DNA of 64,000 nucleotides from an uncultured Bdellovibrionales bacterium (GCA_964530135.1 CAZGXN010000006.1:5396-69395), one strand, 5' to 3'. Numbered from the stretch's first letter, positions 7,054-26,077 are shown. Numbers and translations: made by a program. The notes: a model not told the origin generated them from the sequence alone.

Positions 7054-7125
7054 TCCGGCGTAGCTCAGCGGTAGAGCAGGTGACTGTTAATCACTTGGTC
7101 ACAGGTTCGAATCCTGTCGCCGGAG
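7054..7125 (+). tRNA. tRNA-Asn (anticodon GTT)
   Basis: Acceptor TCCGGCG/CGCCGGA, D-arm TAGCTCAGCGGTAGAGCA, anticodon stem GGTGA/TCACT with loop CTGTTAA, T-arm ACAGG-TTCGAAT-CCTGT. Confidence 0.8.
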
Positions 7126-8700
7126 CAGTTGAACGAAATCGGCTTGTTGAGAGCCGGTTTTTGTTTTGTTACTGCGGAAATCCGATGGTTCGAAATTTTC
7201 TGTTGAAGAATTTGGAGGAATCCGCATTTTAGAACTCGTCAGGTTTATTGCCTCTACCAAGAGCTTAAATGCCTCTGTGTGGTCATACACCACTTTCCCG
7301 TCAATCAGCCGTATATCCTTAAAAATCAGGCGTAAAAGGCTGCGTTTTTGATCTGTGTCTTGGATTGAAGCGTAAATCTCATGGGCTCGCTGGGCTAGCT
7401 CAAAAAGACTGTTGTTGAACTCAAAATAGCGGTCGTCTGATTCAGTGTGATTTCTGATCGATTCCAAAAGCACCTCTCGCTCCTCGGAGTATTCCTTGAG
7501 CTTCCGTTTGTAGAAGTCTTCGGGTATCTTGCCGTCCAACTTCTCGTCATAGAGGCGGTCCATACGCTTTTGGATCTGCTCCAGTCTCGAGTTCATGTCT
7601 CCAATGGCCGAGGAGTGGAATTCTTTCTTGTCCCTATGCCCATCTTTGAGAGCTTTGCGTACCCATTCAAAGACTCCAGACTGCTTGATACGGAAGCCTG
7701 AAAGGATTAAGGCGACTTGCTTATCGACATCCTGTTCTCGATACCATTCTCTTTGGGAACAATCCTTGTAATAGTAATTGCAGTGCCCATAGACATAGCC
7801 TTTGTGCGTCTCCCAAGTGATCTTGCCTCCGCATTTGTCACAACTGATGAGGCTCTTGAAGAGGAAGAAATGCTTTCGGTACTTTGGGGTATTTTTGCTG
7901 TGCATGACATTTTGGACCGCTTGGTAAAGCTCCTTTGAGATGAGAGGCTCTTGTTTGCCATCATATATCTCACCATTCCATTTCACCTTGCCGTAGTAGA
8001 AAGGGTCTTGGAGGATGTCAGCCATTCGGCTTTTCACCATCCTATTGCCACCTCGTGTTCGGAGTCCAAGCTCGTACATGGTTTTGTTGAGCCGAAGGAG
8101 TGAGTAGTTGCCGGACGAATATATTTCGAACATCTTCTTCACGAGGGGAGCCTTAACGGGATCTATCAGATGAATCTTACGACCCTTATCTCCCTCAGTT
8201 CGATAGCCGATAGGGGGCTTGGTTGGAAGCCAGCCTTGAGCAATCTTTTCCTTTTGACCCTTCTTCACTTCCTCAGAGAGGTTGTCAGTGTAGAATTGGG
8301 CAGTGGAGACACGGATGTTCCAAAGAAAGCGTTCTCCTGACTTGGAATCTTTGGTTAGGGTCCAATTCTCTTTGGCGAAGTGGACCTCTCTTTCGGAATC
8401 CTCATTCACCCACTCGTTTATCTTTACAGCATCTCTCAAGTTTCTCGTCAGACGATCCACCTTTTCACAGATGATGATTTTGATACCCTTCTTTTTCATG
8501 AGATCAAGCATTTCCCCGAAGACTTGACGCTGTTTTTGTCCGCTGGCTGATTCCGAGACCGAGAATGTCTTTTCGATTTTGAACTCTTTATTCTCGGCAT
8601 ACTCTGTCAAAAGCTTTTCTTGGGCAGGCAAAGAATAACCACTCTCCTCTTGAGCGACAGAGGAGACACGGGCATAGAGTATGCATTTTTGGTTATTCAT
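7099..8700 (-). CDS. large serine recombinase (resolvase/invertase-family catalytic domain + recombinase domain + zinc ribbon), probable island integrase
   Basis: N-terminus ILYARVSSVAQEESGYSLPAQ...ICEKVDRLTRNL (catalytic Ser region), central recombinase domain, C-terminal Cys cluster CDKCGG...GHCNYYYKDC. Confidence 0.85.
   Translation of the reverse strand: MNNQKCILYARVSSVAQEESGYSLPAQEKLLTEYAENKEFKIEKTFSVSESASGQKQRQVFGEMLDLMKKKGIKIIICEKVDRLTRNLRDAVKINEWVNEDSEREVHFAKENWTLTKDSKSGERFLWNIRVSTAQFYTDNLSEEVKKGQKEKIAQGWLPTKPPIGYRTEGDKGRKIHLIDPVKAPLVKKMFEIYSSGNYSLLRLNKTMYELGLRTRGGNRMVKSRMADILQDPFYYGKVKWNGEIYDGKQEPLISKELYQAVQNVMHSKNTPKYRKHFFLFKSLISCDKCGGKITWETHKGYVYGHCNYYYKDCSQREWYREQDVDKQVALILSGFRIKQSGVFEWVRKALKDGHRDKKEFHSSAIGDMNSRLEQIQKRMDRLYDEKLDGKIPEDFYKRKLKEYSEEREVLLESIRNHTESDDRYFEFNNSLFELAQRAHEIYASIQDTDQKRSLLRLIFKDIRLIDGKVVYDHTEAFKLLVEAINLTSSKMRIPPNSSTENFEPSDFRSNKTKTGSQQADFVQLLRRQDSNL
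7101..7172 (+). repeat. att-like motif copy 1 (authentic tRNA-Asn T-arm/3' end + downstream hairpin ending ttttgttttgttac)
   Basis: Shares core gGAGCAgtt...stem-loop...TTTTTTGTTAcc with copies at 16610, 17555, 18496 and 24797. Confidence 0.5.
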
Positions 8701-8822
8701 AAGCCTTTTGGAGGGATACTCCTTGATAGAAAGTCCACAGGAAGTATCCCTCTACTTTTCAATTTGGAGCACTTCTAAAGTGGCAAAATTACTGCCCCTA
8801 TAGGGGCTAATATTTTGCCATT

Positions 8823-9914
8823 TTAGACCGCCTCACTCGTTACCTCGGAAGAGCCGGGGAGAAAACAGAGTTTGGCATTCTTTTTTCCTTTCTCACAGCC
8901 CACCTCTTTGTTCTCAATCATGTCCTTCAATATTTTCTGGACAAACTTTCCTCCGACTTCTTCGGCTATCTTTACTTGATCCACGATCACCATCATCGGA
9001 AGCCTCTCCTCACTTTCGGTCAGGAGATGGAGAATAGTCTCTTTGATCTGACTTGCCTTCTCTGCTTCTCCTGAGTGGTTGCCAGAGTACATGAACGAAA
9101 CTTTTCCTTCCTCTTTTACAACCACAATCTCGAAAGCTGGCGTCTCCTCATCTACTCGGAGCTTCGGCTGTTCGAATACTAGAACGCCTTTCATATCCCT
9201 ATCCTTTCTAACGGAGATATGCGAATCAACTGCCGCTGAGATATCAGATGATCCACGCATTTTATTTTGTGCAGACGACCTGATGAGTCCCTCTTTTCTT
9301 TCGTGATGCGTCAGTATCACGGTTCTGCCATTTTGGTTAAACTTTTTGATTGCTTTGAATACAGTGGACATTTGGGTTGCGTCATTCTCATTCCCACTAT
9401 GGATCCTCACAAGTGAATCGAAAAATATCGTATCGATGTTATTCCTTTCGCACATGCTCAGAATTCTTTTGATCCAAGCTTCTTTGTCGACTGCAACCCC
9501 CTCTTGGGAAAGGAAGTAGATAGGGGAGTCGCTTGTAGCTCCTAGGAGACTGGCTCGTTCTTGGAGTAAGCGTAGGTGATTTTCCTCATCCACAATGAGA
9601 ACAGATGACTTAGGGCATTCGAACTGGCCAAGGAACTTTTCTCCTTTTGTCATGGAGATCCCCATGAGCAGGAGGAGCCAAGTCTTATAGTTGCCCGGAG
9701 GACCAGAGAGAATGGTGATGCCTTGATGAGGGACGAGTTTATCAATTGCCCATCTACTCTCTGGGAACTTCATAGCGAGCAGCTGTCCCATGGATATAAG
9801 TTCGGGGAATTCAACTTGCTTCTTTGGTTTACTGACGACGGTCGGTAGAGGATCGCTTTTCCTTTTTGCAACCTCTTCACCGAGTGCCAAAACCCTTTCT
9901 TGAATATGCTTCAT
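8823..9914 (-). CDS. RecA-like P-loop ATPase of the AAA_25 / DnaB-C-terminal-like type, probable mobile-element replication protein
   Basis: WAIDKLVPHQGITILSGPPGNYKTWLLLLMG (Walker A variant), VLIVDEEN (Walker B), FFDSLVRIHSGNEND. Confidence 0.55.
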   Translation of the reverse strand: MKHIQERVLALGEEVAKRKSDPLPTVVSKPKKQVEFPELISMGQLLAMKFPESRWAIDKLVPHQGITILSGPPGNYKTWLLLLMGISMTKGEKFLGQFECPKSSVLIVDEENHLRLLQERASLLGATSDSPIYFLSQEGVAVDKEAWIKRILSMCERNNIDTIFFDSLVRIHSGNENDATQMSTVFKAIKKFNQNGRTVILTHHERKEGLIRSSAQNKMRGSSDISAAVDSHISVRKDRDMKGVLVFEQPKLRVDEETPAFEIVVVKEEGKVSFMYSGNHSGEAEKASQIKETILHLLTESEERLPMMVIVDQVKIAEEVGGKFVQKILKDMIENKEVGCEKGKKNAKLCFLPGSSEVTSEAV

Positions 9915-9919
9915 AGCCT

Positions 9920-24903: not shown

Positions 24904-25416
24904 ATGTTACCAAAAATCTATTTTGTTATTGGAGCCAATGGAGTAGGTAAGACTACTCTTCTTTCCCATTTAGTAACTCTTTTGTCACAGGGCGTATTTG
25001 AGCTTCACGATTTTGATGAAAGAGGTGTTCCTGATAATGCAGATAAAATTTGGCGTATTAGCGAGACAAACTATTGGATTAGTCGTGGAGAAGAAAATAA
25101 ACGAAAAGGAGTCTCTACCGTCATTTGTGGATTCTCGAAGCCTGAGGAAATAGGTGAGCGAGCTGAAATTATATTACTTGATGTCAATGCAGAATCATTG
25201 GAAAAAAGGCTGAGAGGACGCTATCAAACAGAAGAATCTTTGAAAGAACTAGAGCGAACAACGGGAAAAAGTGTAGAGAAGTTCCTGGCTGATAACATTT
25301 ATGTGTCTTCCCTCTTAAGGAAGAGCTGTGAAGAACGTGTCTGTAAGATAATTGAAACATCGGACGTTTCACCTGCGGAGATAGCTCAAGCAGTTGCAGG
25401 ATTTATAAGGGGCTAA
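24904..25416 (+). CDS. P-loop NTPase / predicted kinase (AAA_33 or zeta-toxin-like fold)
   Basis: Walker A IGANGVGKTTLL. Confidence 0.5.
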   Translation: MLPKIYFVIGANGVGKTTLLSHLVTLLSQGVFELHDFDERGVPDNADKIWRISETNYWISRGEENKRKGVSTVICGFSKPEEIGERAEIILLDVNAESLEKRLRGRYQTEESLKELERTTGKSVEKFLADNIYVSSLLRKSCEERVCKIIETSDVSPAEIAQAVAGFIRG

Positions 25417-25418
25417 GA

Positions 25419-25988
25419 GTGAAGAGAAATATGAAACCAAAACTGATTATTTTAAATGGTGCTCTCGGAGTAGGGAAATCTACTTTGGCAGAACGGTATG
25501 CAGCGGAGCATCCGCTTACCTTAAAATTAGATATTGATGAAGTAAGAAGATTGATGAGCAACTATCGAGAAGAGAAAGAAATTTCAGGACTATTGGCTAA
25601 AAAAATGGCAGGTGAGATGGCACGAGTGCATTTGAAAGAGGGATATGATGTGGTTATTTCACAAATCTTTACTCAAACCGAGCCCCTTGAAGGTTTAGAG
25701 GGGATTGCCGAAGAATGTGGAGCAGATTTCTATGAATTGCTTCTTTCAATTTCCAAAGAGGATTCTATCAGGAGGTTTATCGAAAGAGGAAAGGCTGAAG
25801 GGTATACAGATGGTTTTCGTCCAGGAGGACTCGTAACTACAGGGGGAAAGGAAAAAAAGCTGGCGGAGATGTATGATGGCATGATGACTTTAGTTTCTAA
25901 ACGACCTCATACGAGAATTGTCGAGTCAGTAGAAGGGGATATTGATGGCACCTATAAGAATCTCATGGAAGCGGTCACTAGGGGATAG
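25419..25988 (+). CDS. P-loop NTPase / predicted kinase, tandem paralogue of previous
   Basis: Walker A LNGALGVGKSTLAERY; DIDEVRR; 2-nt gap from previous gene. Confidence 0.5.
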   Translation: MKRNMKPKLIILNGALGVGKSTLAERYAAEHPLTLKLDIDEVRRLMSNYREEKEISGLLAKKMAGEMARVHLKEGYDVVISQIFTQTEPLEGLEGIAEECGADFYELLLSISKEDSIRRFIERGKAEGYTDGFRPGGLVTTGGKEKKLAEMYDGMMTLVSKRPHTRIVESVEGDIDGTYKNLMEAVTRG

Positions 25989-26032
25989 AATTTCTTCAGA
26001 TGGGCTCTATTACTACTGGAATATACAAATAG

Positions 26033-26077
26033 TCTTGTTTCTGAATCACGGTTCTAACGTCCTTCACGATGCGGAGC
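26033..26077 (+). repeat. 45-nt repeat A, second copy (cttgtttctgaatcacggttctaacgtccttcacgatgcggagca)
   Basis: 42/45 identity to 17328-17372. Confidence 0.5.

Follow-up and report, generated by a model that had tools for sequence, protein, structure and literature searches.

In the staphylococcal cassette chromosome mec (SCCmec), the target of the CcrAB large serine recombinases is the 3' end of a single conserved gene, rlmH, where they insert elements. Pseudo-SCC elements without ccr genes have no recombinase of their own and are flanked by attachment (att) sites; their mobilisation is presumed to occur in trans or in cis. Repeated att sites delimit the composite tandem arrays. Recombinase-less, att-flanked elements also figure in the cis-mobilisable element (CIME) or accretion model of streptococcal integrative and conjugative elements, as cited in PMC3146451. 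The closest described case to the locus treated here is that of the Dehalococcoides ssrA islands, where the CcrB-like DsiB, a large serine recombinase, inserts islands into a tRNA-like gene at its 3' end (McMurdie et al. 2011, PMC3146451). Our locus lies in a stretch of 64,000 nt (CAZGXN010000006.1:5396-69395), called the window below, in which copies of a repeat of about 100 nt separate small groups of genes downstream of a tRNA-Asn gene. What are these repeats, and how did they get there? They are probably the attachment-site joints of mobile segments that were inserted serially at the 3' end of tRNA-Asn, the shorter ones perhaps moved by the large serine recombinase family. No description of this array was found in the literature searched, in which the coverage of journals is incomplete.

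To which organism does the window belong? Its RpoD is 90-94% identical to proteins named Candidatus Moraniibacteriota, and the named homologues of its recombinase come from Minisyncoccia, Moranbacteria and Parcubacteria. Because of this identity and this taxonomy the window is assigned to a Candidatus Moraniibacteriota chromosome, within the Patescibacteria (candidate phyla radiation, CPR). CPR bacteria have genomes of about 1 Mb. The GC content is 0.36-0.47 across 10-29 kb of the window and about 0.52 beyond. Loci from other genomes used for comparison carry L-numbers, and a dnaG-rpoD-tRNA-Asn neighbourhood is common to the window and the array-bearing loci.

Anatomy and geometry of the joint unit

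The joint unit has three parts: a left arm, a hairpin and a right arm. The left arm resembles a tRNA 3' end and reads GTTC(T/G)AA, N5, TCC, N8, G(C/G)GAGCA; left arms sort into a few discrete, conserved types, A to F, common to several genomes. The hairpin part runs from an A-run through a near-invariant core (GGCT-loop-AGCC) and a T-run to TTGTTACC. The right arm is an inverted tRNA-like sequence (..ATGGGATTCGAAC or ..GTGAnGGTTAGAAC) that often stands directly before promoter-like TGnTATA(A/C)T or TTGAC sites. Such sites, several with an extended -10, follow most units (identified partly by eye), and a promoter scan taken as a whole was not enriched over shuffles. Across 49 aligned units GAGC, GGCT and AGCC are invariant, and RNAalifold finds the hairpin as the sole conserved structure, with compensatory changes in three stem pairs. 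The sense strand has the more stable fold in 51 of 61 units, owing to G-U pairs. The conserved stem with its compensatory changes and the bias towards the sense strand mark the hairpin as a predicted intrinsic terminator of the upstream gene or tRNA.

How do the left arms differ from the tRNA end that they resemble? GTTC and GAGC lie 18 nt apart in every true tRNA-Asn end (11 of 11) and 23 nt apart in every non-tRNA left arm that has the motif (37 of 37), and the 5-nt insertion is visible in a four-way alignment (see below). In serine integrases, the distal motif of the zinc-ribbon domain lies 5 bp nearer the centre in attB than in attP half-sites (PMC3783163). By this comparison, which covers left half-sites only, the left arms have the appearance of half-sites of the P type, and the tRNA end that of a B-type half-site, for a single family of enzymes. 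Since they fall into few conserved types whose distal motif is displaced outwards by exactly 5 bp relative to the tRNA, the left arms would be attP-type sequences brought by the incoming DNA. The offset of 5 bp is arguably the strongest argument for the small cassettes as recombinase substrates rather than decayed tRNA copies, and it is from this arm geometry that we infer movement of small cassettes by the recombinase in trans. The right arm keeps a narrow distance of 17-19 nt to TTGTTACC and appears to be an inverted, B-spaced mimic with the core GTAAC. A rule of 5 bp for the island right arm was dropped, being dependent on the anchor (+5 from GTTAC, +9 from the hairpin). Resemblances to XerC/D dif-like sites and to the insertion sequences IS200/IS605 (TTAC) and IS91 (GTTC) were set aside, there being no matching enzyme or site symmetry.

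In total, the window holds six complete units, a decayed one and two copies that consist of the left arm only; all lie within 7.1-26.1 kb (Table 1). The five copies listed in the initial annotation are all present at the coordinates given there and could be aligned, and a profile from four other copies added a sixth at 24358-24459 (nhmmer, E = 9e-11), absent from that list. The unit had been taken to measure about 50 nt; it spans about 100 nt, from a GTTCnAA motif upstream to an inverted TTnGAAC motif downstream. A tRNA-like repeat given as 45 nt is present at both of its sites with a length of 46 nt (17327-17372 and 26033-26078, 93% identical), and the string gcggagcagtt, said to recur exactly as at the tRNA, does so over 10 nt (cggagcagtt) and not in full. 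The core pattern GGAGCANNTAAAAACAGGGCT, with up to 3 mismatches, has 2 matches in the window against 0.01 expected by chance; a repeat finder returned the copies as families D1 and D2 and the 46-nt repeat as family D4. A broader profile, for which 61 copies from many genomes were used, matched only between 7069 and 26079, with no unit in the other ~45 kb of the window and none near tRNA-Ser (186-273). As the annotation had held, the array is not one of clustered regularly interspaced short palindromic repeats (CRISPR), and neither is it a genome-wide repeat: the unit is confined to 7.07-26.08 kb of the 64-kb window, and other genomes carry same-strand arrays of it. Rfam returned only the two tRNAs from the whole window at gathering thresholds, and no family beyond chance miRNA matches from 16.5-19.4 kb at permissive ones. 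A possible decayed left arm (CAGAATCGTCCCGCCTGTGCGAGA) was seen at ~27357-27385.

Integration at tRNA-Asn and exchange of cassettes

Where does incoming DNA enter? Alignment of occupied and empty sites puts the insertion point of the island in the window directly after the GGAGCA of tRNA-Asn (7122-7127). The ORF-less (open reading frame-less) segment at 17373-17565, termed resident here, is a homologue of the DNA that lies directly 3' of tRNA-Asn in L025 and L057; it is 91% identical to L025:421-662 over 242 nt and 75% to L057:12716-12934, and both of these begin at the tRNA GGAGCA. In the four-way alignment (boundary marked by a slash), L025 and L057 read tRNA...GGAGCA/TAAA(T)GAAA..., and the window reads (type A arm)...GCGGAGCA/TAAATGAAA... 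at the resident segment and GGAGCA/, then island, at the tRNA. From this alignment, 7128-17372, that is, the island plus a NUDIX cassette, is read as an insertion made exactly at GGAGCA, and the integration site is documented to that extent. L025 and L057 have the unoccupied arrangement, and the core GGAGCA is shared by the tRNA end and the distal junctions. L057 belongs to a close relative (RpoD 93% identical) in which the 7-29 kb block is absent except for the resident segment; there, tRNA-Asn is only ~2 kb away from the copper-resistance and SWIB genes found at 30-47 kb in the window.

An ORF-less segment of ~200 nt is kept directly downstream of tRNA-Asn in relatives (window 17373-17565, L025:427-640, L057:12722-12925), and its end copies the 3' end of the host's tRNA and follows the host sequence (in the window TATCGCCGGAGCA, in L057 CCGACCCCCGGAGCA). 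Only the type E arm at its end in the window (17529-17565) truly copies the 3' end of the host tRNA. The array closes with arms of the resident-segment type in L019 and L026, just ahead of a P-type ATPase gene. A structured RNA at 17405-17570 was considered and rejected (folding z = -1.0, no Rfam match). In look-ups of the exact M15 peptidase, NUDIX protein and P0111 for empty-site or circular alleles in the source population, only the integrated arrangement was seen. Three short metagenome contigs from sister samples (L039, L040, L041) end inside tRNA-Asn, ~106-120 nt past the M15 peptidase gene; such breaks would reflect how an assembler behaves at a repeated or polymorphic junction, and hint at heterogeneity of the population at this site. 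The tRNA-Asn of the window is intronless. In many relatives the anticodon loop is split by a group I intron (Rfam RF00028, 82-86 bits), by eye also in L010, L027, L007, L013, L033 and L046-L048, and ARAGORN misses the tRNA-Asn of relatives because the intron interrupts the gene.

Which enzyme might act here? The first segment is an island that encodes a large serine recombinase whose catalytic domain aligns with that of the TP901-1 integrase, YARVSS on YTRVST, over the YxRVS catalytic serine. It has more than 1500 homologues, and contexts were inspected for the window and eight homologues of 51-62% identity. Eight of these nine contexts (the window and seven of the eight homologues, the exception being L032) are at the dnaG-rpoD locus. 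In six of them (window, L034, L035, L045, L046/47, L048) the recombinase gene reaches the 3' end of tRNA-Asn with its own 3' end, abutting or overlapping it; L033 has just a tRNA-like 3' fragment, and L049-56 was placed by its dnaG-rpoD neighbourhood alone, ~2.7 kb away, without a tRNA scan. A preference of the recombinase family for this site is apparent from these contexts. A metagenome scan with the recombinase gave two distant relatives only.

The recombinase ORF crosses the island end and the hairpin and continues 28 nt into tRNA-Asn before its stop. As it runs over the island boundary and stops inside the tRNA gene, the ~34 residues of its C-terminal tail would change on excision of the island as a circle, as has been reported for DsiB of Dehalococcoides. 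The minus strand of 7128-7200 codes for this C-terminal tail, and the layout of the tRNA-proximal end (GGAGCA, a hairpin with compensatory differences, a T-run and GGTTC(G/A)AAnTTTT within the recombinase C-terminal coding region) is kept in L033, L034, L035, L045, L046 and L048. L035 holds a homologous island with the same module order that likewise ends in a type D left arm. Because the islands of the window and L035 both end in a type D arm, the island has, on sequence, arms of the same kind at its borders as the small cassettes have. The order recombinase, AAA_25 or primase-like gene, then defence cargo recurs in the window, L032, L035, L045 and L046. The GC content of the island is 0.36-0.46, against ~0.52 in the core genome. 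The cargo in the window is a cyclic-oligonucleotide-based antiphage signalling system (CBASS) at 12391-16502, with a patatin-like phospholipase effector and an oligonucleotide cyclase that carries an AGS-C domain; behind the cyclase lie two genes (308 and 277 aa) that have no family match and may be accessory CBASS components.

Are the small segments mobile as well? The NUDIX cassette (16636-17386) shares 90.7% nucleotide identity over 751 nt with L028:128-875, and the rpoD of that metagenome-assembled genome (MAG; L029, same MAG as L028) is 75.9% identical to that of the window at the nucleotide level. In L028 the cassette has an upstream arm of type B instead of type D and another gene downstream. 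Likewise, the 254-aa protein has a counterpart of 75% identity at L019:134-883, preceded there by an arm of type A instead of type E. Three cassettes in all have differing neighbours in different genomes, from which exchange between genomes can be read. The decayed type F arm of the second NUDIX cassette resembles L029_4386. The absence of traces of island genes, shared cassettes above the rpoD identity, changed neighbours and the missing block in L057 all fit intact, discrete mobile cassettes at a presence/absence-polymorphic hotspot, and not decay in place.

The exact exchange point is more complex. In pairs of units that share the upstream cassette, homology ends right at GAGC in 3 of 4; in pairs that share the downstream cassette, its start varies (just after GAGCA, at GGCT, or at the 3' half-stem), and mismatched hybrid hairpin stems are present (L028_73, L018_224). 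The occupied and empty sites back GGAGCA as the exchange point for the block of island and NUDIX cassette. A single crossover at GAGCA alone or at TTGTTAC alone was rejected, as neither fits all homologous pairs. The hairpin module, from GAGCA to TTGTTACC, is ~30 nt long and reassorts independently of the upstream arm and of the downstream arm with its gene.

Similar arrays were sought in other genomes with an exact pattern (GAGCA-N9-11-GGCT-N6-AGCC-N3-5-TTTTGTTA) run over species genomes and viral contigs. It gave 26 loci (8 kb each) in the species genomes and 0 matches in the viral contigs. In MAGs of Patescibacteria, the profile recovers arrays of the full unit on one strand, each unit behind a gene and 0.4-3 kb from the next, with six units in L024, five each in L009 and L018, and four each in L019 and L028. 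The array begins at tRNA-Asn wherever the contig extends that far: in L008, L018 and L025, at an intron-bearing tRNA-Asn in L012 and L029, and by sequence in L010 and L027. Non-array loci such as L032 have no unit. The cargo elsewhere comprises Fic, NUDIX, APH-type kinase, nucleotidyltransferase, Band-7, ParB-like and glycosyltransferase genes, and no recombinase of any kind was seen among the array genes scanned in these loci. Fic/DOC-domain genes recur as cassettes, and NUDIX, small kinase and nucleotidyltransferase genes are recurrent cargo too.

Several of the MAGs in the species genomes are titled 'uncultured Bdellovibrionales' (Table 1). Their RpoD is 81-92% identical to that of the Moraniibacteriota window, and for this reason they are probably mislabelled. 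Units of the Patescibacteria type also occur in single loci titled Rhabdochlamydiaceae, Gammaproteobacteria or Bacilli, which may be mis-binned contigs or cross-phylum transfers.

Table 1. Coordinates of the tRNA gene, island, units and cassettes in the window, with related features of the compared loci (L-numbers)
Feature	Position	Strand	Details
tRNA-Asn(GTT)	7054-7126	+	ARAGORN and Rfam
Putative B-type (attB-like) arm, docking point	7105-7127	+	last 23 nt of tRNA-Asn, GTTCGAATCC..CCGGAGCA
Large serine recombinase, 533 aa	7099-8700	-	Pfam Resolvase PF00239, Recombinase PF07508, Zn_ribbon_recom PF13408 (just under cut-off)
Integrative island, 9.5 kb	7128-16614	.	recombinase, AAA_25, 300-aa protein, DUF2569-like gene, CBASS, two unknown genes; ends in type D arm, GAGCA 16610-16614
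tRNA-proximal island end	7128-7200	+	predicted terminator hairpin 7135-7161, T-run with GTTAC, GGTTCGAAATTTT at 7187-7199
AAA_25 protein	8823-9914	-	
CBASS patatin effector	12391-13311		
CBASS cyclase	13292-14716		
Unit 2	16562-16689	+	type D left arm, GAGCA, hairpin 16619-16647, TTGTTATCC, inverted arm GGTTAGAACC 16664-16673, promoter-like site 16680-16708
NUDIX cassette	16615-17372	+	gene 16783-17217; ends in type A left arm 17327-17372, GAGCA 17368-17372
ORF-less resident segment, ~190 nt	17373-17565	+	own hairpin 17380-17407, decayed inverted arm, type E arm ending TATCGCCGGAGCA
Unit 4	17529-17632	+	type E arm, GGAGCA 17560-17565, hairpin 17569-17597, TTGTTACCC, extended -10 promoter-like TGATATAAT, site 17605-17634
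Cassette, 254-aa gene of unknown function	17566-18502	+	gene 17659-18423; type C left arm at end, GAGCA 18498-18502
Unit 5	18457-18575	+	type C arm, hairpin, TTGTTACCC, inverted arm AATAGAAC, TGATATACT
Second NUDIX cassette	18503-19268	+	gene 18594-19136; decayed type F arm at end, GGAGTA 19263-19268
Decayed unit 6	19236-19348 (unit ~19236-19320)	+	GTTCTCA arm, GAGTA, hairpin CAGCC/GGCTG; by eye, under profile threshold; strong promoter-like TTGACA-16-TATACT at 19321-19348
Multi-gene cassette, seven genes	19269-24388	+	HTH (helix-turn-helix) regulator, two unknown genes, thioredoxin, DsbD-redoxin, MsrA/B, MerT-like; type B left arm at end, GAGCA 24384-24388
Unit 7	24328-24459	+	type B arm, hairpin 24397-24416, inverted arm GAGTTAGAAC
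Cassette, 101-aa gene	24389-24826	+	gene 24489-24794; type F left arm at end, GAGCA 24822-24826
Unit 8	24788-24901	+	type F arm, hairpin 24837-24852, TTGTTAACC, GGTTAGAACC, TGGTATACT
Two-gene kinase cassette	24827-26078	+	P-loop protein 24859-25416; AAA_33/zeta-toxin-like 25419-25988; lone type A arm at end
Lone type A left arm without hairpin	26033-26078	+	end of kinase cassette
Genes beyond the last arm	26079-28800		T4 endonuclease V-like glycosylase, MscL, 79-aa gene, AHSA1-like, receiver domain
Hairpin-module reassortment	window (e.g. 16615-16647), L018, L019, L028 (e.g. ~100-135)		
Group I intron in tRNA-Asn	L012:2057-2325	-	Rfam RF00028
Group I intron in tRNA-Asn	L029:2343-2588	+	Rfam RF00028
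Fic/DOC cassettes	L018:3318-4256, L019:2236-3288, L024:4555-5445, L029:2805-3866, L011:4170-5222		
MAG loci titled 'uncultured Bdellovibrionales' or otherwise suspect	L005, L006, L009, L012, L019, L024, L025, L027, L028, L029; also L004, L014, L017, L020		

Proposed mechanism and alternative explanations

How could such an array grow? The docking site is the last ~23 nt of tRNA-Asn (GTTCGAATCC...GGAGCA), with exchange at or within GGAGCA, and each newcomer enters between the tRNA and the earlier arrivals, shifting those downstream. The incoming segment would carry the terminator hairpin, TTGTTACC, the inverted tRNA-like arm and a promoter at its 5' end and a tRNA-like left arm ending in GAGCA at its 3' end. 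Because each segment would be built in this way, each joint would be a hybrid of the upstream segment's left arm with the downstream segment's hairpin and right arm. The hairpin would end transcription of the tRNA or of the upstream gene. The enzyme would belong to the large serine recombinase family encoded by the first-segment island (which also has a replication-type gene and the CBASS), and the recombinase-less segments, of one to seven genes, would be moved in trans or co-mobilised with a neighbouring island by accretion. The outcome would be a platform that gathers and reshuffles accessory genes and is functionally integron-like.

A number of points weigh against this mechanism. With canonical serine integrases, recombination of a new attP with attL or with attP-like sites does not occur, yet serial insertion at an occupied tRNA site needs something of this sort. 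The hairpin module assorts apart from both flanks in several pairs, and therefore one crossover point cannot explain the pairs. No right half of the presumed site could be delimited, and the distance from GAGCA to GGCT varies by 1-2 nt. No recombinase homologue lies inside the 26 eight-kb array loci, all of which come from one exact-pattern scan. Within a cassette, the left and right motifs at its two ends covary weakly (p = 0.03, n = 14), which would fit each cassette bringing both of its own ends.

A more far-reaching form of the idea, possible though somewhat less likely than not, sees the arrays as an integron-like capture platform of the Patescibacteria: tRNA-Asn would be the dock, mobile 'master' islands would supply a large serine recombinase specific to tRNA-Asn, and this enzyme would act in trans on self-contained cassettes, each with promoter, gene, attP-type arm and terminator, and move them inside a genome or from one genome to another. 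With its extrudable hairpin between two inverted tRNA-like arms, the palindromic joint would then be a new serine-recombinase substrate, and a joint of this kind might explain why the hairpin module reassorts independently.

Could the segments be decayed remnants of once complete integrase islands, now immobile and separated by degrading copies of the tRNA 3' end and terminator? This was the initial annotation's explanation, and we consider it unlikely. There are precedents, as tandem islands with partial tRNAs and degraded elements are documented for tycheposons (bioRxiv 10.1101/2020.12.28.424599) and for the Dehalococcoides ssrA islands (PMC3146451). The type E arm does copy the tRNA end; type D arms, which end the islands in the window and L035, also lie behind ordinary genes in L018, L019 and L011 and could be island stumps. 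Some decay is found in the array, in the unit at 19236-19320, in the lone arm at 26033-26078 and in the small genes without units up to ~28.8 kb. Against this, tblastn found no fragments of the recombinase, AAA_25 or 300-aa genes in the window array or in the 26 loci of other genomes. Random decay would not yield a few arm types that recur across genomes with an exact offset of 5 bp. The single-gene cassettes have precise unit-to-unit boundaries, changed neighbours, identity well over that of rpoD, and a promoter-like site and terminator each. The repeats are not serial copies of the tRNA end, type E excepted, and the tRNA-adjacent hairpin (7135-7161), proposed as their source, differs in sequence and is part of the inserted island. 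What survives of the annotation is its tandem-integration hotspot at the tRNA-Asn 3' end, where the insertion point has been mapped and arrays start; its single recombinase, found in the first segment only among the ORFs scanned; and its expectation that the inter-repeat segments are not universal in relatives, which holds, as they are absent from close relatives such as L057. The low-GC DNA at 26079-28800, with small same-strand genes and no recognisable units, may be the oldest, eroded part of the array.

A role at the level of RNA, with the left arms acting as tRNA-like minihelices at mRNA 3' ends (in processing, stability or as CCA-adding signals), is very improbable. The arms do lie on the sense strand just 5' of the terminators, those of types C and E could pair like an acceptor stem (by eye), and the tolerance of the hairpin for G-U pairs points to selection on RNA. 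What speaks against such a role is that no pairing beyond the hairpin is conserved in the 49 units, that the 5-nt insertion breaks the T-arm in every non-tRNA arm, that the inverted arm is conserved across the hairpin, outside the 3' end of the same transcript, and that Rfam gives no match.

One may also ask whether this is a true integron, or a cluster of attC sites without integrase (CALIN), with the units as attC, inverted GTTCTAAC / GTTAGAAC as R''/R' and an IntI-type tyrosine recombinase encoded elsewhere. Arrays in one orientation, mostly single-gene cassettes with imperfect palindromes of ~100 nt between them, ORF-less cassettes and outer motifs reminiscent of RYYYAAC / GTTRRRY all recall integrons, and yet the identification is extremely doubtful. 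The T/G variant of the left motif and the A/C variant of the right motif do not covary inside the unit (Fisher p = 1.0) and RNAalifold finds no outer stem, which rules out attC-like folding. Homology boundaries fall at GAGCA or the hairpin and not at the 3' motif, the right arm goes with the downstream gene, the cassettes have promoter-like sites of their own, and a tRNA gene next to a serine recombinase island with the same kind of ends serves as the anchor of the array. No tyrosine recombinase (Phage_integrase) was found among the scanned ORFs of the window (in 32-64 kb, those of up to 600 aa) or of the arrays.

Finally, a generic intergenic repeat of the repetitive extragenic palindrome or bacterial interspersed mosaic element kind (REP/BIME-like) or a terminator family, spread by terminator selection or a REP-associated transposase and unrelated to integration, can be dismissed almost entirely: the hairpin is a good intrinsic terminator conserved as structure and armless GGCT/AGCC hairpins exist (e.g. 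L057:13662-13700), but copies are absent from the 45 kb of the window off the array, from the surroundings of tRNA-Ser and from non-array loci such as L032, the arrays begin at tRNA-Asn, their arms imitate the tRNA end with a fixed spacing of 18 or 23 nt, and the insertion point is mapped.

Significance and comparison with known systems

How CPR bacteria gain and exchange accessory genes is a subject on which little was found in the literature searched. If serial insertion at tRNA-Asn is true, one conserved hotspot by dnaG-rpoD that stacks ready-to-express cassettes would explain much of this exchange; the cassette functions seen are NUDIX, Fic, kinase, nucleotidyltransferase, redox-repair and CBASS. 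Such a hotspot would, moreover, amount to another way of achieving what integrons do, reached independently through a different mechanism and with a serine instead of a tyrosine recombinase. With a profile or PCR primers aimed at GAGCA-hairpin-TTGTTACC, the unit can serve to retrieve the mobile genes of these uncultured bacteria, and a recombinase family with a well-defined natural attB and many natural attP variants could interest genome engineering.

How new is the arrangement? Like the window, the Dehalococcoides ssrA locus has tandem islands downstream of the target gene, with direct repeats of the gene 3' end plus an extra conserved motif between them (PMC3146451). The DsiB ORF overlaps attL and, like that of the window recombinase, finds its stop codon only inside the target gene, and in both systems some tandem units lack an integration module, those of Dehalococcoides being proposed to be cis-mobilisable (PMC3146451). 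The target here is tRNA-Asn in Patescibacteria, whereas there it is the transfer-messenger RNA (tmRNA) in Chloroflexi; the units here are mostly one-gene cassettes of 0.4-1.3 kb, there islands of several kb or more. In contrast to the ssrA islands, the joint is formed here by a palindromic module of ~100 bp that includes a terminator and a promoter-like site, and the arms come in several conserved attP-type classes with the offset of 5 bp.

Prochlorococcus tycheposons (Hackl et al., bioRxiv 10.1101/2020.12.28.424599) share with the window a recombinase, a replication module and cargo at tRNA genes in a streamlined genome, and also repeated insertion that pushes older elements into the island and leaves partial tRNAs scattered. 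Unlike the window element, 910 of 937 have tyrosine recombinases (bioRxiv 10.1101/2020.12.28.424599). Tycheposon islands are described as degraded remnants, whereas the window has ordered, intact single-gene cassettes with a standard joint, in another phylum and at a single target tRNA.

Integrons and CALINs resemble the array in being one-site platforms of mostly single-gene cassettes in one orientation, with imperfectly palindromic sites of ~60-140 nt, cassettes shared between genomes and ORF-less cassettes. Unlike in integrons, no IntI was found here and there is no attC-type folding covariation; exchange falls on the 5' side of the palindrome, whereas in integrons the crossover lies between G and TT of R'. 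The cassettes of the array bring their own terminator and promoter-like site, a tRNA gene is the dock, and the enzyme associated with the array, a serine recombinase, is encoded on a mobile island.

SCCmec and CIME elements measure several kb to tens of kb, are few per array, have no standard promoter/terminator joint and are not targeted to a tRNA gene. Judged by its sequence, then, the window array differs from the described systems in its very small cassettes, its standard ~100-bp terminator/promoter joint, its several classes of attP-type arms and its CPR host.

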